A DNA stretch of 64,000 bases from an uncultured Thermococci archaeon (GCA_964595645.1 CAZQQT010000003.1:1-64000); one strand, 5' to 3'. Shown: positions 1,601-61,495, numbered from the stretch's first letter. The notes: generated by a model not told the origin, from the sequence alone. Translations and numbers: made by a program.

Positions 1601-1807
1601 AAAAACTATTTATAGAATGAAAAGAATAGTATAACGATCAGGATGAGTAAAAAAGAGGAAGAAGGCATACGAGAGTTATACACATATCTTACTGACAACA
1701 AAGATAAGATGAGTGAGGAAGAGTACAGGGAGTTACAGGCGGATCTAAAAAAGACATTACTCCATGCACATAAAGAGAATAACATCTCAGATGAGTTTTT
1801 TGAAGAA
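1601..1807 (+). repeat. IR-B copy 1: 5' region plus first ~55 codons of the 1643..2500 gene; inverted copy at 56078..56283
   Basis: Near-identical DNA (about 95% by eye) from about 42 nt upstream of the ATG (aaaactatttatagaatgaaaagaatagtataacgatcaggATG) through codon ~55, ending at gatgagttttttgaaga. Confidence 0.8.
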
Positions 1808-2500
1808 TATCATGGAAAGCTAAAGAAGTTGGAAGAGAAAACGGAAATAAAAATCTGTCCACAGTGTTGGCATGATAATAAGCGAGATTCTGTGTATTGT
1901 GAAAACTGTGGATACAAGTTTGAAGAAATAAAAGAGGAGAATAAAAGGATCTCTTTGAAAAAAATCCTTCCTGTGGCCACCATTATAGTACTTATAGGGG
2001 TAGCGCTATACTTTACGTTACCTTGGGGCGAGACTCCCGAAACAACAATACCAACGACCACAGCACCTACCACCACATCAGTATCAATATGGACGACAGC
2101 TCCAACAACACCCGCCATTACGACTGCAAAGCATGATGATTTAGCATTCGTAAACTGGATGGACAGGATAAGTAGTCCGATAATAGCAGATCTTGAAAAT
2201 ATAAGTTACGCAGCAAACATGGAAAGTTTTAATTTACTGAATGAGTACGGCCTTGATCTGTATAATGATTGTAGCGATGCTTTGGATGAGATCGATGAAT
2301 ATGATGTATCACCAAAGTTAGGACCGGTACAACGAGAGTTTAGATTGGCTCTTTTAAATTATAAAAATGCTGGTGCAATATTGGCCGATGTGGGACCATA
2401 TGACACTAAAAAAATGGAAAGGGCTACAGACTACATGGAAACTGGAATGACACATATCAATGTAGCAAATGAATATATTGAAGAACATTATGAAGGGTAG
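1643..2500 (+). CDS. zinc-ribbon / single-TM / Thr-Pro-stalk surface protein (family member 1, carries the N-terminal module)
   Basis: 285 aa. N-terminal ~60-aa module MSKKEEEGIRELYTYLTDNKDK..., zinc ribbon CPQCW-x11-CENCGY, TM helice ILPVATIIVLIGVALYF, stalk TTIPTTTAPTTTSVSIWTTAPTTPAITT, then a C-terminal ~130-aa domain. Confidence 0.7.
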   Translation: MSKKEEEGIRELYTYLTDNKDKMSEEEYRELQADLKKTLLHAHKENNISDEFFEEYHGKLKKLEEKTEIKICPQCWHDNKRDSVYCENCGYKFEEIKEENKRISLKKILPVATIIVLIGVALYFTLPWGETPETTIPTTTAPTTTSVSIWTTAPTTPAITTAKHDDLAFVNWMDRISSPIIADLENISYAANMESFNLLNEYGLDLYNDCSDALDEIDEYDVSPKLGPVQREFRLALLNYKNAGAILADVGPYDTKKMERATDYMETGMTHINVANEYIEEHYEG

Positions 2501-2906: not shown

Positions 2907-2991
2907 TGCGGGGGAGGGGATTCGAACCCCCGAACTCCTACGAGAATGGATCTTGAGTCCATCGCCTTTAACCTGGCTCGGCAACCCCCGC
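2907..2991 (-). tRNA. tRNA-Leu (anticodon CAA)
   Basis: Reverse complement reads GCGGGGGTTGCCGAGCCAGGTTAAAGGCGATGGACTCAAGATCCATTCTCGTAGGAGTTCGGGGGTTCGAATCCCCTCCCCCGC. It has a 7-bp acceptor stem, anticodon stem ATGGA/TCCAT with loop CTCAAGA (anticodon CAA), a long variable arm and a GTTCGAATC T-loop. No CCA is encoded. Confidence 0.85.
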
Positions 2992-3071
2992 AGGGGATAG
3001 TATTAGTGTGTATGCAGAGTTAAAAAATCTTGCGTTGTGAAAATGGATAAATAAAAAAGAGAAATATAACC

Positions 3072-4289
3072 TTACACCGCAGTGTACGTGGCAGTCGTGG
3101 TAGTGTTTGCTGCTGTAACGGTGATGGTGTACGAGGCTTCGGGGGTAATATCAGGAACGCTGACTGTGATATGGCCTTCGTGGTAAAACGTAGTCTCTCC
3201 ACCGAGGAACATCGCATCTCCAGATTCTGTGACGAGTTGGTTTACTATCGTGTGGTGTGAGCTGTTTTTGATCACCACTCGTACCTCAGATGTAGAAGTA
3301 TTACTGCCCACATCCATCGTGCCGTTCCCGTTATCCGTGACAAGGGTGTATCCTGTGTTGTTGTAGATCATGATATAAAATTTCTTGTCATCATTTGTAA
3401 CGTTCACTATGTGGAGTTCACCTGAGACCTGTTCTTCAGATGTTTCTCCACCGTAAGTAGACATAAAGTCCTCCCAGTCCTTTGCGAACTTCGCATCTTC
3501 CGGCATATCGATAACTACCTCTGCGTTGTAGCTTGACATGGAGGTAGTCAGCGTGAGCGTTCCATCTGTAGTTGCACCCTGCGCACCAGGGATCTCTGTC
3601 ATCTCGAGGTCCATAGTGACAACGGACTTGACGATCCGATGCGTCGTTTTTGAGATCCAGTACTCGACCGTATAGTCCTTTATCGACTTCTCAAGCTGCG
3701 CAATGTTGAGCTGTCCCTCCGCTGTACCGAGCTGTTGAGAGATCGTCTGTGTTTCCTTGTACATCTTCAGCAGCTGACTCAGTGTGGACTGGAGGGTGAG
3801 ATGATAGGCATCCTTTCCGTCCAGTGTTGTTTCCTCCAGCATGAGGATTTCAGCCGATGTAAGGAGGTCCTCGAGTGCCTTCGTTTGATTCAGCGCCGAT
3901 GCATCCTCCAGCTCTTTTTTGTACCAGTCGCCGAGCATTTTCATGTAGAATGTATTCCCTTCAATGTACGTCTCGCCGTCAAGCGTATAGTTCATATCGG
4001 TGTCTTTGACGTTCACGTTCATAGAGAAATCGCTTTTTTGCTTGGCGTGCTGTTCATCCACGGCACTATCCATCTTCATTACCATCGTCATCGAGGTTTC
4101 CTCTCCCTGCATTTGCATGGTCATATCCATCTGCATGTGTGTCTGGATTTTGTATGTCGTTACTGTGGTATACGCATCAGCAACATGCTGCCCTATATTC
4201 TCTTTGGTAATTTCATCTTGTTCCTCCTGACACATCGTTGTGCATACGAGGATCCCGATGAGCATCCCCACCAGCAGTATTTTTTTCAT
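3072..4289 (-). CDS. secreted or surface-anchored protein (signal peptide, Thr-rich C-terminus)
   Basis: 405 aa. N-terminal MKKILLVGMLIGILVCTTMCQ signal or lipobox-like segment; C-terminus TVTAANTTTTATYTAV. No catalytic motif seen. Confidence 0.6.
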   Translation of the reverse strand: MKKILLVGMLIGILVCTTMCQEEQDEITKENIGQHVADAYTTVTTYKIQTHMQMDMTMQMQGEETSMTMVMKMDSAVDEQHAKQKSDFSMNVNVKDTDMNYTLDGETYIEGNTFYMKMLGDWYKKELEDASALNQTKALEDLLTSAEILMLEETTLDGKDAYHLTLQSTLSQLLKMYKETQTISQQLGTAEGQLNIAQLEKSIKDYTVEYWISKTTHRIVKSVVTMDLEMTEIPGAQGATTDGTLTLTTSMSSYNAEVVIDMPEDAKFAKDWEDFMSTYGGETSEEQVSGELHIVNVTNDDKKFYIMIYNNTGYTLVTDNGNGTMDVGSNTSTSEVRVVIKNSSHHTIVNQLVTESGDAMFLGGETTFYHEGHITVSVPDITPEASYTITVTAANTTTTATYTAV

Positions 4290-26489: not shown

Positions 26490-27074
26490 ATGGGGTTATT
26501 TTCTCGGAAACCGAAAATAGAGCAATTACGAAATAACGGGGATATTAGAGGATTGAATGAAGCGCTTGCTCATGAAGACACTATGATCAGATTTGAATCT
26601 TCTTTAGCGCTTGCAGATCTTGCTGAAAAAGGGATAGGAAGCAGTTCTTCTATACCGCCTCTCAACCGTGCACTGAATGATACAGATCCGTATGTGAGGA
26701 GCAATGCCGCTCTTACACTTGTACGGCTTGTGCAAATAGGTGTGGGAGATTCCTCGTCTATTCCGTATCTGCACAAAGTATTGCAGAATAACTATGCACA
26801 TTCGCCAGCAAACATGTATGCACGAGGATTTGCCATTGATACGCTTCGATTCTTGGCGCAGAAAGGGATAGTAGATCGTTCTTCACTTTCTGTTCTTGAT
26901 ACCGTATATAAAGAAGATCCTGAGTATGAAATAGCAAGAGCTGCTCGAAATGCCTTTAAGGAGATCCAAAAAATAATGGGATCTTCTTCCCAAGAAAAAG
27001 GCGAATGCCCGTCTTGCGGACATGAGAATCCTCCAGATTCGATGTACTGCAGTAGCTGTGGAAATAAATTGTGA
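26490..27074 (+). CDS. HEAT (PBS-lyase-like) repeat protein with C-terminal zinc ribbon
   Basis: 194 aa. Repeated DxxVRxxAAxALxxL units; C-terminal CPSCGHENPPDSMYCSSCGNKL. Confidence 0.7.
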   Translation: MGLFSRKPKIEQLRNNGDIRGLNEALAHEDTMIRFESSLALADLAEKGIGSSSSIPPLNRALNDTDPYVRSNAALTLVRLVQIGVGDSSSIPYLHKVLQNNYAHSPANMYARGFAIDTLRFLAQKGIVDRSSLSVLDTVYKEDPEYEIARAARNAFKEIQKIMGSSSQEKGECPSCGHENPPDSMYCSSCGNKL

Positions 27075-27091
27075 AAACAGAGGATTTCGCT

Positions 27092-28216
27092 ATGAAACAA
27101 TCAGATATCAGAAAAATGAGAAATAATAGAGATATTTGTGGATTAAATGCTTTAATAACTCACAACGATCTAGAAACAAGAATACAGGCTATGGTAGCGC
27201 TTGCAGATCTTGCAAAGAAAGGCATCGCAGATTCATCGTCGTTACCGTATTTGAACAATGCATTGAGCGATACAGAGGAAGGTGTACGGATCAACGCAGC
27301 GTATGTGCTTGCATCCCTCGCAGAAAATGACATCAAGGACGAATCCTCGATTGCTCCTTTGAAAAAGGCTCTCGAAGACCGCAATGTATATGTACGGATA
27401 AATGCACGAGGAGCACTGAGAAGAATGGGCGTTCAGGCGAAAAAATCCGTCCGAGATTCCATACCCCTAGGCAATCCATTGGCAGAGCTTCTAAAGAGGG
27501 CCGAAAACATAGAGAAATTAAACGTTATACTCGAAACCGGCACCGATAAAGAAAAGACCAATGCTGCCTACGCGCTTGGACAGCTTGCCGATGCTGGAAA
27601 AGGAGATAAATCCTCGATACCTCTTCTTAACAATGCATTAGAAGAGGATAACAAGTATCTCCAATCAGCAGCTGCCTACGCACTGAGTTTTCTCGCAGGG
27701 ATAGGAGTAGGCGATGTTTCCTCACTGCCATCACTGAAAAGAGTATTACAAGAAGGAGACGATTCTGCAAAGAACATGGCTGCACACGCAGTCGCAAACC
27801 TTGTCAAAATGGGCATCGTTGATACATCGCTTATCACACCTTTAAACAGAGCTCTTACCACGGGGGACGAGTCCGTACGCTCTGCATCTGCCCATGCTCT
27901 AGCTTCTCTTGCCGAAAAGCAAGTAGGTGATCCATCGTCGATCACTCCTCTCAACGCTCTTGTACAAACTGACGATCTCATGGGGAAGATATACGGAATC
28001 TACGCGATCCAGTGTCTTGCAGAAATGGGCATCGGCGATCCGTCCTCAATACCATACGTAACAGAAGCCTTAGGAGACGAAGAGGTAGCAGAATCTGCAC
28101 GAAAAGCGTGTAATGCTCTCCAAGCACTCCTTCAGAAAAAGACATGCTCAAACTGCGGAGAAAAATTCCCTATAAATTCAATATACTGTTCCAACTGCGG
28201 AAAGAAGTTACAGTGA
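27092..28216 (+). CDS. HEAT repeat protein with C-terminal zinc ribbon (larger paralog)
   Basis: About 374 aa from ATG 27092, with at least 8 HEAT-like units (D.SSIP.L..AL.D....VR..AA.AL..LA). C-terminal CSNCGEKFPINSIYCSNCGKKLQ. Stop codon of the upstream HEAT gene lies 17 nt before the start. Confidence 0.7.
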   Translation: MKQSDIRKMRNNRDICGLNALITHNDLETRIQAMVALADLAKKGIADSSSLPYLNNALSDTEEGVRINAAYVLASLAENDIKDESSIAPLKKALEDRNVYVRINARGALRRMGVQAKKSVRDSIPLGNPLAELLKRAENIEKLNVILETGTDKEKTNAAYALGQLADAGKGDKSSIPLLNNALEEDNKYLQSAAAYALSFLAGIGVGDVSSLPSLKRVLQEGDDSAKNMAAHAVANLVKMGIVDTSLITPLNRALTTGDESVRSASAHALASLAEKQVGDPSSITPLNALVQTDDLMGKIYGIYAIQCLAEMGIGDPSSIPYVTEALGDEEVAESARKACNALQALLQKKTCSNCGEKFPINSIYCSNCGKKLQ

Positions 28217-29374
28217 GTGTATTTCTTTTAGTATGGGGGGTATAGGAAGTTCTGCTTTCTCAAGACTTCGTTTGTATCCCCTCAGTGCCTGAAGACCTTG
28301 AGGTGTGAGGTACCATCGGATGGATGTAGGACGACGTGGTGCCCGCGAAGGACTGAAGATTGACTCGGCAATGGAATGGGCTGTTTTCGAAAGCGAGGAT
28401 CGTTCTTCGTTTGTTATCGTATCTCCCCACGGATGGTTGTAGTATCCTCTGTTTTTGAGGCCTCTGATTGTTACTTTTGGGAATGTTTCCTTGTATGTGA
28501 TTTCTCCCTTAATACGCTGGTACCAGTAGGAGGACTGCGTCGCATGTTGTCCATGCCAGACCTGTGCACATGTGAGGGGTAAATCTTCGACACCTGTATC
28601 AAAGTCCACCGCTCCCTTTTTCGCGAGTGCGGTAGCAACAATAAGCTCATTTTGTTTTATTTTATTGTCAATTGCGACGAGGATCGGACCTGCAGAGATA
28701 AGTACAGGCCCCGGACCGTCCCTCACCATTACTTTCACGGGGTATCCGTAGTAGGATGCAATGATCTGGGCAATCTCAGACGCACGAGAAAATATTTCCC
28801 GATGGAAAAGACATAACCCAAGGGCATGCAATTCTCGGTACGTTCCTGTGGAAAATCCTGAGAGTTCGGTGTACTCACTGAGGTATTGTATACCACCATT
28901 TTCACTGGCAAAATGAAGTGATACTTCCTGCAGCCGAAACTTCATCTTGATATACTCACGCACAATCTCCTCAAAGTCTGGAATACTCTCGAAGGAAGGA
29001 ACGTTTTTTCTCTCGGTGTATTCCCGGAGTTTTTTCATTTTGTGCTCTCGTATCTCCTTTGCAAGAGGATTAGCCTCTTTGTCTACCATTGCGTAGAGCC
29101 CTAAAAGCGTCTCTTTCATTGCAGCAACACGATCGTATACAATGTTCGTTGCACCACAGTAGTCGCAGGCAATGACTTCCTTCATATTTCCCCGGTATTC
29201 CATCGGTGCACCGCACTGCTGGCAGGTTACCAGATCGAAGATAAGCGAGGATTCCATCGTTTCAACAGTTTTCGTGGCGGCTTGCGGCGTTAATGCTGTT
29301 CCGCAGAAAGAGCAGTACTGTGAATCTGAGGGAGTTTTCGCACTGCAGTTGGGGCATACGAGTCGTTCTGCCAT
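28208..29374 (-). CDS. double zinc-ribbon protein with uncharacterised C-terminal domain (last gene of the rSAM/SPFH operon)
   Basis: Start taken at MAERLV (29374, SD gaggt 7 nt upstream). CPNCSAKTPSDSQYCSFCG and CQQCGAP ... CDYCG ribbons, then a ~300-aa domain with no recognised motif. Confidence 0.6.
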   Translation of the reverse strand: MAERLVCPNCSAKTPSDSQYCSFCGTALTPQAATKTVETMESSLIFDLVTCQQCGAPMEYRGNMKEVIACDYCGATNIVYDRVAAMKETLLGLYAMVDKEANPLAKEIREHKMKKLREYTERKNVPSFESIPDFEEIVREYIKMKFRLQEVSLHFASENGGIQYLSEYTELSGFSTGTYRELHALGLCLFHREIFSRASEIAQIIASYYGYPVKVMVRDGPGPVLISAGPILVAIDNKIKQNELIVATALAKKGAVDFDTGVEDLPLTCAQVWHGQHATQSSYWYQRIKGEITYKETFPKVTIRGLKNRGYYNHPWGDTITNEERSSLSKTAHSIAESIFSPSRAPRRPTSIRWYLTPQGLQALRGYKRSLEKAELPIPPILKEIHSL

Positions 29375-29403
29375 GTAATACCTCGATAATAAAAAAAGAA
29401 GCT

Positions 29404-30372
29404 CTAAAGTTTTTCTCCACACTCCGGACAGAATTTACTTCCCGTTGGAATCTCAGCGCCGCATTTTTTACATTTCAATTTTGTTTTCGGCATCGAAAGT
29501 TCATTCCCACAGTTGGGGCAGAACTTTGAGCTTCGTGGCACCTGATAGTTACATTTTGGGCAGATAACTGTTGCCACACCAGCACCTTGTGGCGCCAGAA
29601 GATTTGTCGCGCCCTGCATTGCATAGGGAACTGCCATGAACCCCGCACCTAATGCGGCACCACCTCCTTTCGTCTCCTTAATAGCATCTGCAAACTTTTC
29701 TGCTACTTCCTTCCCTACCAACTGTTCAGCAGTAACGCCGCGCTGTAAATAGAATAGCTTGTTTTTGTATTCGTCGGGGATTGTAACTCCTTCAATTTTT
29801 AAGTCCACCATATCGATACCGAATCTGTCAAAATCACCTCGTAGCCGCGCTTTGATAAATATTGATGTTTCTTCTGTTTGTTGGTAGACATTGTAAGATG
29901 TCTGCTCGGCGAGGTTGTCGATGAACTTCTCGATAATAAACGCTTCTACAAAGTTCCTCACATCTTCCTTGGTGAATTTCCCAAGATTTCCGACGATCTC
30001 GACAATAAACAGTTTCGGATCCTCAATCTGCACAAAACATCTCCCAAAGGCACCACAAGGCACCATGTCCCTTAGCATGACCTTCTGTTTCGTGCCGAAT
30101 TTGAACTCCACCTTCGAAGTGTTCACAAAGACTACTTCTGCGGTGAAGGGAGTTCTCCCCTGGAAGAGTATTTTATATGCGTTGAAAATCAGAGGGATGT
30201 TCATCGTTGTCAGTGTGTGTCTTCCTGGACCCAGTACATCGTACGCCTTCCCGTCTCGGAAGAAAACCGCCTGTTGATTCTCTCGTACTACCAGCTGGTC
30301 TCCCATAGTAACCTCCCCTCTGTATGCGTAGGCGAGGTCATTTTCCGTTCCTCTCCAATCGATAACTCTCAT
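29404..30372 (-). CDS. SPFH/Band-7 (Band_7_1 type) protein with C-terminal double zinc ribbon
   Basis: 322 aa. MRVIDWRGTEND ... LVVRENQQAVFFRDGKAYDVLGPGRH ... VVFVN ... fits the Band_7_1 SPFH pattern (B. subtilis YdjI-like). C-terminal CPKCNYQVPRSSKFCPNCG and CKKCGAEIPTGSKFCPECG. Confidence 0.65.
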   Translation of the reverse strand: MRVIDWRGTENDLAYAYRGEVTMGDQLVVRENQQAVFFRDGKAYDVLGPGRHTLTTMNIPLIFNAYKILFQGRTPFTAEVVFVNTSKVEFKFGTKQKVMLRDMVPCGAFGRCFVQIEDPKLFIVEIVGNLGKFTKEDVRNFVEAFIIEKFIDNLAEQTSYNVYQQTEETSIFIKARLRGDFDRFGIDMVDLKIEGVTIPDEYKNKLFYLQRGVTAEQLVGKEVAEKFADAIKETKGGGAALGAGFMAVPYAMQGATNLLAPQGAGVATVICPKCNYQVPRSSKFCPNCGNELSMPKTKLKCKKCGAEIPTGSKFCPECGEKL

Positions 30373-30836
30373 TCATTCACCTTTTCATCGCCCTCACTCA
30401 CATCCGTCATTATATCTTCTCTTTTTTCAAACTCGTCCTCTATAACTCTGAGATGTTTCAGGATGTTTTTTGGGTCTTCTCTCTCTTTTATTTCTTCAAT
30501 CCTTTTTAATATTTTCTCATCGTACTTGTAGAGTCTCTCAAGCTCTTCTTCATCAATATGTATTGGATCAAAAAATCCTGCATAGCCGTAATCTGCGTGT
30601 TCTATCTTATCGATCATCTTCTGGATCTGCTGGATGATTTCCTCGCAGTGTTTCAACTCATCCATTTCTTTGACTCCCTCTTCCATGTACTCAAAATCCT
30701 TTTTAATATACTTTAATTCGTCACATATTTTCTCTCGCAGATGTTTATCACTTTCTCTTCTCAGCTCTTTTTTCTTGTAGCCCTTAAACCCCGGTATTAA
30801 CAACTCTATTTTTTCCAATATTCTACGTTTTTCCAT
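30369..30836 (-). CDS. coiled-coil protein (possible PspA/ESCRT-III-like helper; unverified)
   Basis: 155 aa, highly charged, heptad-rich. Its last 4 nt overlap the SPFH gene start. Confidence 0.5.
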   Translation of the reverse strand: MEKRRILEKIELLIPGFKGYKKKELRRESDKHLREKICDELKYIKKDFEYMEEGVKEMDELKHCEEIIQQIQKMIDKIEHADYGYAGFFDPIHIDEEELERLYKYDEKILKRIEEIKEREDPKNILKHLRVIEDEFEKREDIMTDVSEGDEKVNE

Positions 30837-30844
30837 AAAAACAC

Positions 30845-32098
30845 CTACCTACAGTATGTATCAAGAGGACACCCGGCAGTACATTCTTTGTCTTTGTACA
30901 TCTCACACTCCTTGCAGTCCTCCGGCATGTACTCTCTCTGCCGTATGTATTTGGCCAATTTTGAGTTCCATATTACCTCCCACGGATCGGTCAGCATGTT
31001 TCCCATAGGCTCGAACCAGCTCTGACAGGGGATTACATCTCCATTTGGCTCTACGGTAACGTTGATCCGTGCAGCAGAACAGACCTTCAATCCGAGTCCG
31101 TACTCCACAGGATCGATCTTACATCGCTCTGTGGGCGTGTACCAGATCAGTTCCAGCCCGAGCTCATCACAGGTCGTCACGACTCTTTCGAGTGTCTCTT
31201 TCAGTTGCTCTACAGAAAGAGCATGTTCTCTCTTTGCTTTTCCAGAGTAAATAATGGAGTTAAATGCAACTCTCTCCAGACCTAAATCGCTCAAAAAATG
31301 GATAAAATCTTCTACATCCTTATAGTTATACTCCATCAATGTCGTGTTCGTGAGAGTGAATACAGAGGAGTCTATAGCTTTTTTGATTCCCTCCACGGTT
31401 TCTTTCCACGCATTCGCTCCGACGATTTTATTGTGGACATCTTCAAATCCCTCGATGGTAATCTGCACGTGATCGAGTTCCGCCTGTTCCAGTGCATCCA
31501 TTTGTTGTGAGAGGAGTCTTCCATTGGTGATGAGGCCGGTGACCAGTTCATTACTGTATGCTACCAAATCCACAAGATCATCCCGCAGTAACGGTTCTCC
31601 ACCGGTGAAGACGATGGCGTTACTCAGTTCAGAAATTTTTTCAATGATTACCTTCCATTTCTTTGTGCTGAGCTCCTCTTTCTCCCGTGGAGACGCTGCG
31701 TAACAGTGGATACATTTATTATTGCATCGGTACGTGAGTGCAAGATCGAACCTGTGCGGCGCCGAGAGATCATACTCCTTTGAAAAGGGAGAGATACGTT
31801 CTATATCAAGCGAAGAGAAGGGACAGAGATCTGTGGATGATGCCAGCCCAATGATATTGAAGTATACCTTCTCGTAGTCCTTTTCCACCTTTTCTTTCTC
31901 CACTGTGTATTCTTTTGTCATGATGTCCACTATCTCTTCTCTCGTGTTCTCGTCCATGATATGTTTTACATATTCTGCAGCTGTGTTGTTGAGATAGAGG
32001 ATATGAGCGCCGTTTATATTCAACACAGAGAAATCTTTTTCCTCTCGTAAGCTCAGCCGTATTTTTCCTTCTTCAAATTTTAGTGTCTTTCTACGCAT
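30845..32098 (-). CDS. radical SAM / SPASM-domain enzyme with N-terminal PqqD-like (RRE) domain
   Basis: Start MRRKTLKF at 32098 (ATGA overlap with upstream stop; SD GGAGGAGGTGG 7 nt upstream). Residues ~15-90 (SVLNINGAHILYLNNTAAEYVKHIMDENTREEIVDIMTKEYTVEKEKVEKDYEKVYFNI) resemble a PqqD/RRE winged helix. CNNKCIHC is a CX3CX2C radical SAM motif. C-terminal SPASM cysteines are C-x13-GDVIPC and CKECEMYKDKECTAGCP. Confidence 0.8.
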   Translation of the reverse strand: MRRKTLKFEEGKIRLSLREEKDFSVLNINGAHILYLNNTAAEYVKHIMDENTREEIVDIMTKEYTVEKEKVEKDYEKVYFNIIGLASSTDLCPFSSLDIERISPFSKEYDLSAPHRFDLALTYRCNNKCIHCYAASPREKEELSTKKWKVIIEKISELSNAIVFTGGEPLLRDDLVDLVAYSNELVTGLITNGRLLSQQMDALEQAELDHVQITIEGFEDVHNKIVGANAWKETVEGIKKAIDSSVFTLTNTTLMEYNYKDVEDFIHFLSDLGLERVAFNSIIYSGKAKREHALSVEQLKETLERVVTTCDELGLELIWYTPTERCKIDPVEYGLGLKVCSAARINVTVEPNGDVIPCQSWFEPMGNMLTDPWEVIWNSKLAKYIRQREYMPEDCKECEMYKDKECTAGCPLDTYCR

Positions 32099-33684
32099 CA
32101 GAATCCACCTCCTCCTGCACAGGCACACGCGCAGGATACACAGGCACACGCGCAGGCACAGGATGCACATGCACAGACACAGGCTTTCTCGGAGTGTCCC
32201 ACTTCCTTTCCCGCGATGATTCCTGCGAATGTCTTCTCACTGAGGCCCGGGTTTTTCTCAACACTTTGTTTCCCTTTGTTGAACTCCTCTGCAAACTTCT
32301 CTCCAGAGTACTCCCCCTTCGGAAGATGGTACCAGAGCCACCACGACGTGGGCGTGAAAGCGGTATCAACATCTTTAAATGTTGTTCTTGCCCGGCCGTC
32401 AAACTTCTCATCGATCATCAGCCATCCAGCCTTCTTGCCGAAGAGTCTATATTTCTCCTCAGGAGATATAGTTTTGAGTTCTCCCCAGTACGCTTCAATC
32501 TCGTCTGTATAGTATTTTTCTGTATCTTTTCTACAGTATCCCTTCATTTTTCTATTCACTGCATTATTCAGGCCCTTCAGGACCAGTTTCATACCTTTTT
32601 CATCGAATGTCCCATCCTTCTTCATCCCTTTGAGGAGGAACTGATTTTCGTAGTAGAAGGTTTTTCCTTCGAAGGTAACCTCACAACCGCAGTACTCACA
32701 GAACTCTCTTTCAGATTCTCCTGTCATAGGTGCACCGCAGTTTGGACAGTGATATGCTTTCTCTTCCTCTCGTGACGGGAGTATCTCAACTTTTACAGGG
32801 CTCCATTCCTGTATTCTTATTTTTCCTTTTTTCACCAATCCGTAGAGAAGAATGTTAATTATTTTAAAGGGATGCGCACCCAAAAGTACAGCAGCTTCAA
32901 TATTATCAAGATCCTTCCTTACACCAAGTGATTCCATATGCATTTTTGGGTCTATATACTCTTTCGCCTTTTTTGCTGCTTTGTAGATACCATAACCTAT
33001 GAATATAACAACTACTAGAATAATTGCTACACCTATGAGTATTGAAGACGTATCCGGACCGGGTTTTTCCTCCGTCACATTTGTTACGTACCCTTCCGGG
33101 AATGAGATTCCGCATCTAAATTTTTCTCCTTCTCCAAGTGTTCTTTCCCAGTAGGCAAATGCCCAGCCGTTCTCTTCATCGAAGGTGTCTGCAGGTGCCG
33201 GCTCACATCCAAGCTCGTTCAGCGTTACACCCTCGGGTGCAATTAGTTTTACCCGCAGTACTTTTACCTCTTGATAGTCCCACCAGGCAGGATAAAATTC
33301 TACCCCCACCCTCCCTTCCTCATCTTTGTATACCATTTTTGGAACAATAAGATGGATTTTCATTCGTGTGACATCGCCCGTCTCGGCAACACGGGGGAAG
33401 TAGATCTTCAATCTCGTCCCTTGTTTCTCCACATCCAGCATTCTTCCATCGGATGTGACTGTGTAATCAATAATTTCTTCCTTTGGAATTCCAAAATAGA
33501 TCCCTTGCTGAGGTCCTTCTGTCGTTTTTATCGTTAGAAAGTACCATATGTCTAGAGAAGAGTCTTTTTGTACTGTAACTTCTACATTTTCCTCTTCTAT
33601 AAGAAATTCTGGTCCATCAGCAGAAAATGCACCAAGAAACAAAAAAAATGTCAGGATAAGAACAAGTCCATAGCATTGTTTCAT
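32098..33684 (-). CDS. type I membrane protein with cytoplasmic zinc ribbon and C-terminal (Cys-Ala)n-GGGGF tail
   Basis: 528 aa from MKQCYGLVLILTFFLFLGAFSA (ATG 33684, SD aggag upstream). ~230-aa ectodomain, TM ILIGVAIILVVVIFIGYGIY, cytoplasmic region with CPNCGAPMTGESEREFCEYCGC. Tail is KACVCACASCACACACVSCACACAGGGGF, followed by a TGA that overlaps the rSAM ATG. Confidence 0.7.
   Translation of the reverse strand: MKQCYGLVLILTFFLFLGAFSADGPEFLIEEENVEVTVQKDSSLDIWYFLTIKTTEGPQQGIYFGIPKEEIIDYTVTSDGRMLDVEKQGTRLKIYFPRVAETGDVTRMKIHLIVPKMVYKDEEGRVGVEFYPAWWDYQEVKVLRVKLIAPEGVTLNELGCEPAPADTFDEENGWAFAYWERTLGEGEKFRCGISFPEGYVTNVTEEKPGPDTSSILIGVAIILVVVIFIGYGIYKAAKKAKEYIDPKMHMESLGVRKDLDNIEAAVLLGAHPFKIINILLYGLVKKGKIRIQEWSPVKVEILPSREEEKAYHCPNCGAPMTGESEREFCEYCGCEVTFEGKTFYYENQFLLKGMKKDGTFDEKGMKLVLKGLNNAVNRKMKGYCRKDTEKYYTDEIEAYWGELKTISPEEKYRLFGKKAGWLMIDEKFDGRARTTFKDVDTAFTPTSWWLWYHLPKGEYSGEKFAEEFNKGKQSVEKNPGLSEKTFAGIIAGKEVGHSEKACVCACASCACACACVSCACACAGGGGF
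32104..32115 (-). promoter_or_regulatory. Shine-Dalgarno site of the rSAM gene, embedded in the Gly codons of the upstream gene
   Basis: Minus strand reads gcaGGAGGAGGTGGAttctgATG. The GGGGF-stop codons of the upstream gene double as the SD. Confidence 0.6.
32116..32185. repeat. imperfect tandem repeat (~21-nt unit, TGT-GCN alternation) encoding the Cys-Ala tail
   Basis: Plus strand: cacaggcacacgcgcagg-ataca-caggcacacgcgcagg-cacaggatgcacatgcacagacacagg. It causes the shadow ORFs 32083..32775 (+) and the MCILCLRVCLC extension of the rSAM ORF. Confidence 0.7.
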
Positions 33685-56412: not shown

Positions 56413-57489
56413 TCACCATTGTATCTCAAATTCAAAGTCATTTATCTCTACATCCCAACTTTCAGTACTCCCTTCGAATATAAACTTTGCATGTCCCTTT
56501 TCCATATCCAATGCACTAAAAATAACTACACCAGAAGCCTCAGTTCCAGATTTTATTTTTAAAGGGATTGTAGGATAATCTATATAAAGACTCCAATCGC
56601 TAAATTTTGTCTCAAATTGTCTATTTCCCTGTATAGCTACAGCATAAATATCGTAGAATGTTATTTCTTCGTTTCTCTCATTTTTTATTGTGAGATAAAC
56701 TCTTGTCTCGTCTTCTGCCAGTTCAACATAGTCTAAAGTCATTACGTATCCTTTATGATCCAGTGTTTCTCCTACGTTTACTCTCTCCATGGTTGGGGTC
56801 AGGAACTGTTTGGGATCGATTTTTGTAACGCTGTCTGCCGAAATGATCAAATCCCCCATTATATCCTTGCCTTCTATTGTACCTTCAACTCTCACAATTT
56901 CATCGTTTTTCGGTGTATATTCTCCCTCTGTATATACTGTAACACTTAGCCATGTATCATCTTTATCCGGATGGAAATAAAACCCGTACTTACCTTCTTC
57001 ACTCGTTTCTATACCTACTATGCCCATTAAATTGACTTTTGCCCCTTTATACTTTTCAGGGTTTTTAACTGCGGTGTTTCTTAAATTTTCATTTGTAATC
57101 AATTCGATAGGGGGAGATGGTGCAGCCGTTGTCGTTGGAGCAACTGTCGTTGTTGGTGCTGCTGTCGTTGTTGGTGCTGCTGTCGTTGTAGGTTCAGGTG
57201 TGGTGGTAGGAGCCTCTGTCTCTGCTGGTGTTGTCGTTGTTGTGGTACCATTTTCTTCGGTGGGAATACTCAAACACGTGCCAACAACAATTACAAGAGC
57301 AAACAATGTGATTAAAGCCCCTTTCTTCGTTTTGAAGAGGCTACTTAATATTTTTTTGATCGTGGATGTTTTTTGGTTACTTTCAGTCCTTTCTGTCTTC
57401 TCCTTAAAGTTGTATCCACAGTTTTCACAGTACAATGCATTCTCTTCATTTTCTGATCCGCATTGCGGACAAAACTTCTTCTCTCCCAT
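56413..57489 (-). CDS. zinc-ribbon / TM / Thr-Pro-stalk surface protein (family member 3)
   Basis: 358 aa. N-terminal CPQCGSENEENALYCENCGY, TM LITLFALVIVVGTCL, stalk TTTTTPAETEAPTTTPEPTTTAAPTTTAAPTTTVAPTTTAAPSPP, ~240-aa ectodomain ending FEFEIQW. Confidence 0.7.
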   Translation of the reverse strand: MGEKKFCPQCGSENEENALYCENCGYNFKEKTERTESNQKTSTIKKILSSLFKTKKGALITLFALVIVVGTCLSIPTEENGTTTTTTPAETEAPTTTPEPTTTAAPTTTAAPTTTVAPTTTAAPSPPIELITNENLRNTAVKNPEKYKGAKVNLMGIVGIETSEEGKYGFYFHPDKDDTWLSVTVYTEGEYTPKNDEIVRVEGTIEGKDIMGDLIISADSVTKIDPKQFLTPTMERVNVGETLDHKGYVMTLDYVELAEDETRVYLTIKNERNEEITFYDIYAVAIQGNRQFETKFSDWSLYIDYPTIPLKIKSGTEASGVVIFSALDMEKGHAKFIFEGSTESWDVEINDFEFEIQW

Positions 57490-58159: not shown

Positions 58160-61100
58160 TTAGTAGTTATTTACTGTCTTTTCAATTGGTAGTACTACCT
58201 CGTTAGATTTAATTTTTTGAATCTGCTCCCTGATGTCATTGTCTTCTTTAATACTATTGAAAATTTCTTTTATCACAGCTAATTTTTCGTCTTCAGATTT
58301 TAAGTTTTCAATGCCTTTTAGATAGGGCTTAACCAATTCCATAAGAGTTGTTTCGAGTTTTTCTTCGAAGTAAAGCTCATAAATGAGAGAATCGATGATT
58401 TGCTCATCGATAAAACGAATGAGCTTTTCCTCTGAGCTTCGACGTTTTTCTGTTTCATTGAGAAAGAGCATATAGGTACAGAGGGTAATAAAAGGCTGTT
58501 GATTTTGGAGGGAGATTTTTTTAACTGGAAGTCTCTTGAAGTCATTAGGATAAAAGTAATACTCTATTCTATGCCTCCTAATTGTATTGAGATAAAACTT
58601 GGCGAATTTTGAGTTTAACACAGTTAGAATGTATTTGAGGTCAAAATTGGATGATATTTTCTCCAATTCATCTCTTGGCTTGTCAGTCCATTTCGTGATA
58701 CTCATAGTGATACTTCGGTTCGAAACAGACTTGAGACTTTCGTATCTCACCATCACATTGATACTATGGTTACATATTATTCCACTCTCATCATAGGTTC
58801 CATCTACCGTAGCTCCACGAATTATTTTGGGGTAGATATACAATTCAGGAAAAGTTGGCCTCCTAATTTTGGTAGGGCATCGTTCAGTATCCCATTCCAA
58901 GTATTTGGTTTTATTAATTGTGTACCTATCAATATATTTGGCCTCTACATAAGGCTTACTATTAATTCTTGTTTCAGTATCAGAAATTAGGTCGTCCTTT
59001 TTAAATTCGCCCTTAGCTTTTTTTTCATGAGCATTTAAAACCATACCAACACTTATAAAGCAGATATTTCCCAATAGCTCTGTATTTTTAAATGCGTCTT
59101 CAAAATCCATCGTGGGAGCTATTCTAAAAATCTTATTTATATCCTCAGATGGCTCAAGCTCTTCAATATTTCCAAAAGAATTAACATGCAAAATCCGCTC
59201 TGTCTTCTCTTCCTTTTCTTTATTTTCTACGATAAGTATAACATTTTCGACGCCCACTCCTCTGAAAATTTCAATATTTTCAAAAAAATCAACTTTTTTT
59301 AAATGATAATTTCCCAAAATAAATTTTTTACTCTTTTTAGCGAATTTTGAGGTATTAAATGACTTTGAAATTATGTATGAGAAAACTCCTCCCTCTGAGA
59401 TCGATTTTAGGCTTCTTTCAATGAAGGCAATGAAAAGATCCCATTTTTCATAAAACGTTTGGTATTCTCCTGTGTCCTCTAACACTTCTCTTAGTCTCTG
59501 ATATGTTTCGTCTTCGTTATCTGCCCGTACGTAGGGTGGATTTCCAATGATGATATCGAATCCTCTACCCTCTTGCGATTTTTTCGGATCGAAAACTTCA
59601 TAAAATTCAAATCCCCAGTGAAAAGGACTGAACTCATCAAATTCTTCTTGCGGAATCTTTATATCCTTAGATCTTAACGCTCTATAAAACTCTAAATCGA
59701 GTAATTCTCTTAATTTTTTGTCTATTTTTTCTATTCTTTTTCTCAAAGGTTTAAGTTCGCTATATTTTGCTTTTTTATACGTATGAACAAGGTTTTCTCT
59801 TTCTTCCAATAATTCATACAGTGAATTTTCCTTGGTCCAGTACTCTAAATTTGAGTGATCTCTATCTTGGAACTTACTGATATCCTTATACCCGACCAGA
59901 GTGTTCCCGCGTCTGAGATTATATTCTATATTTGGCAATGGCTTGATATCTTCTGGTTTATATGAATCTACAAGCCACAGTCATAACCGTAATTTTGTTA
60001 TTTCAATAGCATTAGGATTTATGTCTACGCCATACAAATTCTCTAAAAGAATTATTTTTTTAATAACAGAATCGGGATTTTTTATGTTCAGTTTATTAGA
60101 TATTTTTTTGATTAAATCGAATAATATATGAGCCGCTGCCAGTAAAAAGGCTCCAGAACCACAGGCATTATCACAAACGTTCAGTTTTAGTATGATTTTC
60201 TTCAAAATTTCATTTAAAGTTGTTTCATGAAGTATAAAGATTTCGTCAATGTTCTCAATCAACTCTGTCTCTTTATACTCCTTTTCTTCCTTCAAAAAAG
60301 TGTTTATCCTACCTATTAGACAAGAATAAATAGCATTTTCTGCAATATATCTTGTTATATACTTTGGCGTATAATAAGCACCCGTACCTTTCCTATCGGA
60401 AGCGGTCATCGCCCTTTCGAATATATAGCCCAATATCTCCGGATCTATTGAATCTCCATTGCCAAGAGACTCTTTATGTACAAACTTGAAACTATCCAAA
60501 AAATTGACCAGTTCTCTTAAAATTTCAGCCTTGATTCTGTAATTTGGATTTTTTTTCTCTACGTTCGTCTTGAGAAATAAACTCCCATTTAAGTATGGTA
60601 TGTCCTCGAAATTAGAGTCTATATCTACTCTTTCACTTTCTGGAGTATTCAAAACTCTAAAAAATAGTTGTTTTAATCGATCGTTCATGATATCTTGGTC
60701 TTGCTCAGCCAAATAGGCCAAAATATCTTTTTCGATAATCCCTTTCGATTGGAGAAATTTTATAAAGATCAATCGATCGACAATCACCTGAGCAACTTGC
60801 TCTCTACTTCCCAAATCCTCGATATTGAGGATATTCTGTATCAAACAGTCTTCTTCAGAGATCCGTTGTGTTTTATTCTCTCTATCTTTGTATCTCCCCC
60901 CATGCAACAAAGCGTTATACCATGCGTAAAATCTCTTTGTGATTTCCTCCTCTGTCTTATCAGAGATTACTCTTTCTTTTCCACGTAAAAAATCTTCAAT
61001 TTTTTCATGATCCTCTTTTAAATCAAGTTTTGCTGTTTCCTCACCATTTTTATCTATAAATATCCACGTCAATCCATCTGTAGCTATCCCAAACTCATAG

Positions 61101-61495
61101 TTATCTCTTACTTCGGCTAATCTGAATAATCCCTTTATCTGATTCACTGCACTATCCTTTCCTTTGTACAAATCGGCATTTATCGGTTTAACTTCTGCTA
61201 AAAACATTCTTCCTTCAGAATCTTTTATCCTATAATCCGCTTTTCGTATGGTACCCCTACTTGTTCTAAAATGCCTTTCTGGCAATACTTCCAAGTCTAA
61301 CAAGTTAAAGATTTTTTTAATGATAAATTTTTTAGTAAATTCTTCGGGGTCTATTTCCTCCTCTAAAAAAACAGACAAAAGCTTCCTTTTTTCTTCAAAA
61401 ACCCTTTTTCTTCCGTTAAGAGTCATCCTTTTTCGAATACCAGCTATAATACTTACAATAACATCGTTAGTTAATAGGCTATTTTTATTTTTCAT
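58160..61495 (-). pseudogene. Type IIG restriction-modification fusion enzyme (PD-(D/E)xK nuclease + gamma-class N6-adenine MTase + target-recognition region), interrupted by one in-frame TGA at 59981..59983
   Basis: Upstream part (61495..59984) has the nuclease motif ADYRIKDSEGRMFLAEVKP and MTase motif I CDNACGSGAFLLAA, ending ...NAIEITKLRL-TGA. The same frame continues LWLVDSYKPEDIKP-LPNIEYNLRRGNTLVGYKD ... with MTase motif IV IIGNPPYV and a ~500-aa C-terminal region. The two listed ORFs are in the same frame (all codon first positions = 1 mod 3). The second listed ORF merely restarts at a TTG. Confidence 0.7.

Follow-up and report, generated by a model that had tools for sequence, protein, structure and literature searches.

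A conserved gene pair encoding a helical protein and a YdjI-type SPFH (Band_7_1) protein, joined to a membrane protein and radical SAM pair in an uncultured Thermococci archaeon

Background

SPFH proteins are universal membrane organisers; to our knowledge, studies of their soluble Band_7_1 branch are confined to Bacillus subtilis, where PspA is the partner. Here we analyse a 64,000-nt stretch of DNA from an uncultured Thermococci archaeon (GCA_964595645.1 CAZQQT010000003.1:1-64000; "the window" hereafter), in which a Band_7_1 gene is directly preceded by the gene of a 155-aa helical protein that we call HEL. These two genes lie between a second pair, coding for a membrane protein (MEM) and a radical S-adenosylmethionine enzyme (rSAM), and the gene of a 388-aa zinc-ribbon protein. 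The initial annotation of the region had likened its last three genes to a Psp-like membrane-stress module. We report that this trio is to be replaced by a conserved pair of HEL and Band_7_1 genes, joined here to the pair of MEM and rSAM genes.

The SPFH systems closest to this locus are of three kinds. In the SPFH-NfeD operons, stomatin or QmcA is encoded together with NfeD or YbbJ. As a membrane-anchored protein with a beta-rich OB fold, NfeD pairs with SPFH proteins of the stomatin type, which are themselves anchored in the membrane.

In the pspA-ydjGHI (SamGHI) operon of B. subtilis, the SPFH protein YdjI is a soluble Band_7_1 protein that continues through a low-complexity linker into a zinc ribbon at the C-terminus (PMC8581546, PMC11237479). 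YdjI/SamI is recruited by membrane partners, organises PspA foci and restrains SamGH signalling (PMC8581546; bioRxiv 10.64898/2026.02.06.704340). Its neighbour YdjG combines two zinc ribbons with an NTF2-like (YpeB-related) domain and a transmembrane segment (PMC11237479), and is membrane-integral (PMC8581546). Finally, in Archaea, Makarova et al. described a protein combining SPFH, coiled-coil and zinc-ribbon domains in the "Meth_adaptin" Vps4/ESCRT-III loci (PMC11188069).

Results

Organisation of the locus

The five genes are closely packed on the minus strand, in the order MEM, rSAM, HEL, SPFH and the 388-aa gene. Their coordinates, and those of the features discussed below, are as follows:

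33684..32098, minus strand: MEM, 528-aa membrane protein
32101..32181, minus strand: C-terminal tail of MEM, CVCACASCACACACVSCACACAGGGGF
32098..30845, minus strand: rSAM/SPASM enzyme; PqqD-like (RRE) domain at the N-terminus
30836..30369, minus strand: HEL, 155-aa protein, predicted helical bundle; first gene of the conserved pair
30777..30794, minus strand: PGFKGY motif, HEL residues 15-20; P15, G16, F17, G19 and Y20 invariant
30567..30590, minus strand: YGYAGFFD motif, HEL residues 83-90, in the loop joining helices 3 and 4; Y83, G84, Y85, G87, F89 and D90 invariant
30372..29404, minus strand: SPFH protein, 322 aa; second gene of the conserved pair
29407..29571, minus strand: double zinc ribbon of the SPFH protein, residues ~268-322 (ribbons ~268-289 and 299-322)
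29391..29397, minus strand: T7 tract, 7 nt past the SPFH stop codon, read from the sequence
29374..28208, minus strand: 388-aa protein with two N-terminal zinc ribbons

The MEM stop and the rSAM start have one base in common, 8 nt separate the rSAM and HEL genes, and the last 4 nt of HEL are also the first 4 of the SPFH gene. The 29 nt between the SPFH and 388-aa genes contain the T7 tract, which is followed by ATTAT ahead of the ATG of the 388-aa gene. Archaeal RNA polymerase terminates at oligo-T tracts, and the T7 tract could be such a terminator, ending a conserved four-gene unit; alternatively, the T7/ATTAT sequence could be a TATA-like element for the 388-aa gene, or a terminator and an element could both be present. 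The last three genes lie, downstream of the rSAM gene, at the position given by the initial annotation, and its domain calls are upheld by Pfam, so that the observation on which it was built is confirmed.

A conserved pair of HEL and Band_7_1 genes

In a scan of one genome per species, at least 572 species were found to encode a HEL relative. Neighbourhoods were counted in the 80 best species-level loci among these, a sample dominated by Bathyarchaeia, with 33 loci from other lineages. A Band_7_1 gene lies downstream of HEL on the same strand in 74 of the 80; in 69 of these 74 the distance between the two genes is between -83 and +64 nt, and overlaps of 1-4 nt are frequent. Four of the six exceptions (L039, L065, L067, L071) have too little downstream sequence to judge, and in the remaining two (L048, L066) other genes follow HEL; in L066 the place of the SPFH gene is taken by that of a NACHT-HEAT protein. 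In three Anaerolineae loci (L029, L042, L063) two genes are inserted between HEL and the Band_7_1 gene, one encoding a 145-aa protein similar to the SRPBCC/polyketide cyclases and the other a protein of ~400 aa with weak PsbP-like matches. When the partner SPFH proteins were sampled, 45 of 45 were assigned to Band_7_1 by Pfam. An independent sample, anchored on MEM rather than on HEL, gave the same picture, with HEL directly upstream of the Band_7_1 gene in 6 of 6 cases.

HEL occurs in Bathyarchaeia, Thermoproteota, Nitrososphaeria, Hadarchaeota, Freyarchaeota, Theionarchaea, Anaerolineae, Armatimonadota and WS1. Three contigs retrieved with HEL homologues, from Theionarchaea, Bathyarchaeia and a Flp-pilus bacterium, carry HEL directly upstream of the Band_7_1 gene, with neither an rSAM gene nor a homologue of the 388-aa protein near the pair. 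The surroundings of the pair in Bathyarchaeia are stable and syntenic and consist of housekeeping genes, e.g. those of exosome Csl4, RNA polymerase L, PCNA and primase, and the gene clusters common to 36-49 loci at fixed positions are what local synteny would produce in a sample dominated by this lineage. We sought a further conserved neighbour of the pair and found none outside Bathyarchaeia, the flanks of the 33 other loci being variable; ten neighbour genes sampled from the HEL loci with Pfam were likewise varied. The core of the region is thus a conserved, translationally coupled two-gene module, in which a gene for HEL (~150-180 aa) is followed by a gene for an SPFH protein of the YdjI type. 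The literature on Band_7_1 SPFH proteins, zinc-ribbon SPFH proteins, DUF4178 and LIMLP_15305 yielded no description of this pair, and papers on links between band-7 proteins and PspA or ESCRT are silent on it.

The SPFH protein

The Pfam Band_7_1 model (PF13421) matches residues 17-207 of the SPFH protein with an E-value of 2.1e-37 (129.2 bits, cut-off 24), and two stretches at its C-terminus match DZR (E 2.8e-11) and Zn_Ribbon_1 (E 1.2e-15), in agreement with the Band_7_1 domain and C-terminal double zinc ribbon named in the initial annotation. Between the two parts, at residues ~235-265, the translation reads as a low-complexity linker rich in Gly and Ala. The protein has no transmembrane segment, and no 19-residue stretch in it reaches a Kyte-Doolittle value of 1.6. 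With this architecture, which matches that of YdjI/SamI, it is a new member of the YdjI type. Among the 45 partner SPFH proteins, the C-terminal module consists of zinc ribbons in 39, of HTH_17 in three and of SHOCT in one; the partners that end in HTH_17 or SHOCT occur in bacterial loci, L007-L009 among others. There are hints here that the C-terminal module is an exchangeable unit for docking or for nucleic acid binding.

The HEL family

HEL is a highly charged protein (52% K/E/R/D/Q) on which no Pfam family reaches its cut-off, and its family lacks a Pfam model. Our search returned 157 homologues, and 2151 family representatives remain at 50% identity, mostly of 165-180 aa; the family is large, unnamed and uncharacterised. 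Two motifs stand out in an alignment of 25 diverse homologues, on which the invariance of the residues listed above was judged: the N-terminal one, with the family form PGFxGY, and YGYAGFFD. Arg and Asp residues are also conserved. The AlphaFold2 (AF2) model of HEL, with a predicted local distance difference test (pLDDT) score of 74, is all-helical, with a short N-terminal helix followed by four long helices (residues 6-13, 17-54, 58-79, 96-118 and 122-154) that would form a compact bundle. The first of these helices is predicted to be amphipathic, with a hydrophobic moment of 0.71 at residues 4-14. HEL had been described as a short, charged coiled-coil protein; it is indeed charged and helical, whereas the predicted fold is better termed a compact bundle of four to five helices.

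The only curated model that detects the HEL family is NCBIfam NF047596 (LIMLP_15305 family), with E-values from 1.5e-10 to 6.6e-16 and 27-59 bits. HEL itself scores 41.3 bits (E 1.5e-10), far below the equivalog cut-off of 210 bits. The model covers a narrow Leptospira subfamily to which no function is assigned, and the sole paper mentioning the LIMLP_15305 locus tag gives none. HEL belongs to the same homologous superfamily as NF047596, to which it is only distantly related; it is not an equivalog. Other origins were considered and rejected: comparison with hhalign gave a probability of 0.1% for homology of HEL to the cytoplasmic domain of MEM, and 0.4% for homology to the SPFH protein. A defence or mobile-element origin of the pair also finds no support, HEL not being found in 72,556 plasmids or 50,697 phages, and PADLOC giving no meaningful match (only Csx1, E 0.0077).

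Natural variants of HEL include fusions to a zinc ribbon, placed N-terminally on a low-complexity linker (P0175), and to a C-terminal DUF4178 domain (P0200), the latter domain being reported from PspA-CesT/polyamine operons. Six members (P0212, P0220, P0237, P0238, P0243 and P0264) carry Pro/Gly/Ser-rich disordered tails of 200-250 aa.

The pair of MEM and rSAM genes

All three Pfam matches of the rSAM protein are above cut-off (Radical_SAM, E 4.7e-24; SPASM, 4.9e-11; PqqD, 2.4e-7), and its translation contains the CxxxCxxC motif as CNNKCIHC. Its start was placed at M25 of the open reading frame (ORF), which is backed by orthologues of 417 aa. Similarly, the start of MEM was placed at M41 of a 568-aa ORF, giving 528 aa in agreement with orthologues of 527-531 aa. 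MEM comprises, in this order, a signal anchor, an outer domain of ~190 aa, a transmembrane helix, a cytoplasmic zinc-ribbon domain and a C-terminal tail of Cys-Ala repeats; its hydrophobic segments are at 40-65 and 248-278 in the numbering of the full 568-aa ORF. Neither protein is covered by an NCBIfam model, the best for rSAM scoring 122 bits against a cut-off of 525.

In alignment A2 the core of the MEM tail, CACACACVSCACACA, does not vary even where overall identity falls to 32%. In 80 metagenome loci this core is near-invariant at overall identities of 24-49%, most of them 25-30%; for the window and L094-L177 the tail is described by the pattern C[VA]CAC..CACxCACVSCACACA[GS]GG. The rSAM gene adjoins MEM in nearly all of the 84 loci of this metagenome scan (L094-L177). 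MEM and the rSAM/SPASM enzyme form a second conserved and widespread pair, in which MEM is the candidate substrate of the enzyme and, possibly, a membrane anchor or client of the HEL-SPFH pair. The combination of RRE, radical SAM and SPASM domains with an adjacent Cys-rich candidate substrate is the one known from PqqE, from MftC of the mycofactocin system and from the sactipeptide and ranthipeptide maturases; unlike in those systems, the candidate substrate here is the tail of a 528-aa membrane protein and not a small precursor peptide.

How the two pairs are linked

The two pairs occur next to each other in four arrangements:

MEM-rSAM-HEL-Band: this window and six related loci, L011-L016
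HEL-Band-MEM-rSAM: L144 and L166; L034 opens likewise, its contig ending inside the MEM gene
pairs convergent: L096 and L124
pairs divergent: L108

The closest relatives are metagenome-assembled genomes labelled Methanomicrobia or Methanofastidiosia. In the Bathyarchaeial locus L034, the HEL-Band pair is followed after 319 nt by a homologue of the MEM outer domain (2937..3679; E 1e-48 with the MEM profile), on a contig that stops short of the tail and of any rSAM gene. The linked cases fall into three Band_7_1 clades that are 37-43% identical to each other. The operon link to an rSAM gene and its candidate substrate, pointed out in the initial annotation, therefore recurs in other lineages: it is real and recurrent, spanning four arrangements and no fewer than three deep lineages, yet optional, since the pairs are unlinked in Theionarchaea.

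The 388-aa protein, a lineage-specific neighbour

As had been noted, the protein downstream of the SPFH gene has two N-terminal zinc ribbons (DZR match at residues 7-74, E 1.5e-7). The ~310 residues that follow match no Pfam or NCBIfam domain, and the protein contains no hydrophobic or transmembrane segment. Its only homologue among 5.8e9 proteins (P0122, 35% identity) is found in an ankyrin/beta-propeller context and has a hydrophobic C-terminus. The gene is absent from the operons of the closest relatives (L011-L016) and from all other loci, its position being occupied by an unrelated 443-aa protein in L011 and by enolase in L014. An AF2 model built from two sequences reached a pLDDT of only 38 and was unusable for a fold search. 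With YdjG, the protein has in common two N-terminal ribbons, a generic feature, whereas the transmembrane segment of YdjG has no counterpart in it. Because of the single homologue, the absence from relatives, the missing transmembrane segment and the T7 tract in front of it, the 388-aa gene is best regarded as a lineage-specific neighbour, an add-on unrelated to the conserved module and lying outside it.

Comparison of HEL with PspA and ESCRT-III

The proposed likeness of HEL to PspA or ESCRT-III found no support at the level of sequence, profile or fold. Searches with phmmer and with the family profile against all PDB sequences returned no PspA, Vipp1 or ESCRT-III/CHMP chain at E <= 10, and none of the 25 family members matched PspA_IM30 or Snf7 of Pfam at E <= 1. 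When the HEL family was aligned to E. coli PspA (a query sequence identical to 4WHE over residues 1-144) and Synechocystis Vipp1, hhalign gave a probability of 0.3%. A Foldseek search with the HEL model yielded nothing below E 0.4, the top matches being designed helical bundles and the sole ESCRT-III match being Shrub (E 1.4, TM-score 0.26); the modelled helices do not appear to form the long alpha1-alpha2 hairpin, with further helices packed on it, that characterises the ESCRT-III fold. A hidden Markov model (HMM) of PspA/Vipp1 detected no PspA among the window's ORFs, nor did it find one in the 80 HEL-anchored loci. The same HMM, run over 177 fetched loci, did recover a real PspA in L100 (E 1e-21), which serves as a positive control. 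With the PDB, hhalign, Foldseek and HMM comparisons all negative, HEL is no homologue of PspA, and the HEL-Band pairs are not linked to PspA.

In L100 (8007..12763), the MEM and rSAM genes are followed by the gene of this PspA homologue (237 aa) and by that of a small protein with two transmembrane segments; it is a single case, which could be due to chance. The MEM protein of the same locus has its Cys-Ala motif in an internal position, with ~100 further residues after it.

Other genes of the window

Pfam scans of 19 ORFs of the window (the PspA/Vipp1 HMM took in all 379) detected ribbons of the DZR/Zn_Ribbon_1 type in seven proteins, unusually many for 64 kb, so that a zinc-ribbon neighbour is weak evidence here. 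The regions that contain the ribbon-bearing genes are:

1643..2500
26490..28216
28208..30372
32098..33684
56413..57489

The second of these regions comprises, on the plus strand and convergent to the operon, two genes (26490..27074 and 27071..28216) whose HEAT-repeat products each end C-terminally in a zinc ribbon and give sub-threshold matches to Adaptin_N. At 59981..61495, on the minus strand, an ORF matches the helicase-spacer and methyltransferase domains of the MmeI type, which suggests a type IIL-like restriction-modification gene near the end of the window.

Discussion

Like the pspA-ydjGHI operon, the locus described here encodes an SPFH protein of the YdjI kind together with its partners, and the two systems probably have in common the logic of a soluble SPFH protein that would rely on partners for its localisation and function. 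Unlike SamGHI, our module includes no PspA, no TPM-domain YdjH and no protein of the YdjG type; its invariant partner is HEL, and its distribution is mainly archaeal. With the SPFH-NfeD operons it has in common that a widespread two-gene unit joins an SPFH protein to a small dedicated partner, but in our case both proteins lack transmembrane segments and HEL is predicted to be all-helical. Finally, the Meth_adaptin SPFH protein (PMC11188069) and ours both come from archaea, carry a zinc ribbon at the C-terminus and are thought of as parts of membrane-associated assemblies; unlike in the Meth_adaptin loci, no Vps4, ESCRT-III or adaptin-appendage gene was found in the HEL neighbourhoods examined. 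The pairing with HEL is a variant of the SPFH partner systems represented by SPFH-NfeD and PspA-YdjGHI, of which we found no prior description.

On balance, we consider it probable that the locus is a conserved two-gene module, joined here to the MEM-rSAM pair, with a possible role as a membrane scaffold. Our confidence differs between the parts of this reading. As to the anatomy, i.e. the HEL-SPFH pair with its motifs, the MEM-rSAM pair, the four-gene unit and the 388-aa add-on, we have little doubt. The mechanism of the HEL-SPFH-MEM system as a whole is put forward only tentatively, by analogy to the described systems. We propose that the Band_7_1 protein could form oligomers beneath the membrane together with HEL, a partner in fixed ratio that would serve as adaptor or regulator, and that the terminal ribbons (HTH_17 or SHOCT in some lineages) would serve as docking modules to clients. 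In loci that link the two pairs, the part of membrane anchor or client would fall to MEM, its cytoplasmic tail being modified by the rSAM enzyme. Such a pair may be functionally analogous to Psp-type membrane maintenance. It is tempting to go further and to regard HEL and Band_7_1 as an undescribed, ancient, PspA-free SPFH system that in several lineages scaffolds or controls a membrane protein whose cytoplasmic (Cys-Ala)n tail is cross-linked by its own rSAM enzyme, but in this full form the idea is rather doubtful. It would extend over Bathyarchaeia, Thermoproteota, Asgard, Hadarchaeota and Methanofastidiosia-like archaea as well as Chloroflexota, Armatimonadota and Leptospira, with HEL as a new protein family.

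Several points weigh against the scaffold reading. In either sample only ~5% of the loci have the two pairs side by side, and in the sister lineage Theionarchaea they are unlinked, so that MEM cannot be a general partner of the HEL-SPFH pair. The HTH_17 variants of the SPFH protein hint at a role connected with nucleic acids or regulation, which a pure scaffold model leaves over. The binding of HEL to the SPFH protein is proposed by analogy, and the localisation at the membrane is assumed, because neither of the two proteins has a membrane anchor. In addition, the confidence of the HEL model is moderate (pLDDT 74), and the conserved YGYAGFFD loop in particular is modelled poorly.

Among the alternatives, the one that survives best, improbable as it is, would make the pair a peripheral part of an archaeal ESCRT-type sorting system, with HEL as a small helical-bundle adaptor. 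It draws on the SPFH protein of the Meth_adaptin ESCRT neighbourhoods, with its coiled-coil and zinc-ribbon domains (PMC11188069), on the two convergent genes for HEAT and zinc-ribbon proteins (26490..28216) with their sub-threshold Adaptin_N matches, and on a gene with a faint MIT match near the operon of the relative L011. However, matches to Adaptin_N are expected of any HEAT-repeat protein. The Pfam scan found no Vps4 or ESCRT-III gene among the 19 ORFs, a scan that does not amount to an exhaustive one of the window for Snf7; the PspA/Vipp1 model found nothing across the 379 window ORFs; and neither Vps4 nor ESCRT-III is among the ten genes sampled from the neighbourhoods of the 80 HEL loci. 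Furthermore, the position of the pair amid housekeeping genes in Bathyarchaeia speaks against a role in such a system.

Still less probable is the idea from which the analysis started, namely that the last three genes are the archaeal counterpart of pspA-ydjGHI, in which HEL would be PspA, the 388-aa protein YdjG, and the Band_7_1 protein a YdjI that recruits the PspA-like protein to the stressed membrane. The SPFH protein does have the same Band_7_1 and zinc-ribbon architecture as YdjI (PMC8581546, PMC11237479). HEL lies upstream of the SPFH gene, as pspA does, and has a predicted amphipathic N-terminal helix; moreover, in L100 a true PspA follows MEM-rSAM at the position held here by HEL-Band. 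Against this stand the hhalign probability of 0.3% and the negative PDB and Pfam searches, to which we add that we know of no counterpart in PspA of the invariant Gly/aromatic loop motifs of HEL. The 388-aa protein, for its part, resembles YdjG in its ribbons only, and its single homologue, its absence from the relatives and its lack of a transmembrane segment do not agree with the role of YdjG. As a claim of homology, the PspA hypothesis is largely refuted. What holds of the Psp-like module is an SPFH protein of the YdjI type coupled to a helical protein, and the linkage of HEL and SPFH in 74 of 80 loci. The 388-aa gene is linked to them nowhere else and, since the likeness to PspA, the likeness to YdjG and the linkage of all three genes have failed, the trio as such is essentially refuted.

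The notion that HEL perturbs membranes as a four-helix-bundle effector (MLKL, HeLo or CC-NLR type), restrained by the SPFH protein in a toxin-like or defence module, is hardly credible: the similarity to such folds looks generic, with designed bundles as the top matches and nothing below E 0.4 in Foldseek. The lack of a meaningful PADLOC match, the absence of HEL from the plasmids and phages searched and the stable housekeeping setting of the pair in Bathyarchaeia also speak against it.

Conclusions

The label of an "archaeal Psp module" is tempting for this locus but unsupported, and with the conserved pair of HEL and Band_7_1 its annotation is corrected. The Band_7_1 branch of SPFH proteins thereby gains a different, strictly conserved partner in most of the archaeal lineages sampled and in some bacteria, and the pair offers a concrete two-protein system in which the targeting of soluble SPFH proteins, and the processes under their control, can be studied. 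The recurrent link to MEM and rSAM points to an uncurated archaeal modification system whose substrate would be a full-size membrane protein. If the broader scheme, in which the pair scaffolds or controls this protein, were true, the protein would represent a new class of membrane proteins that undergo post-translational modification and are tied to the organisation of membrane domains.

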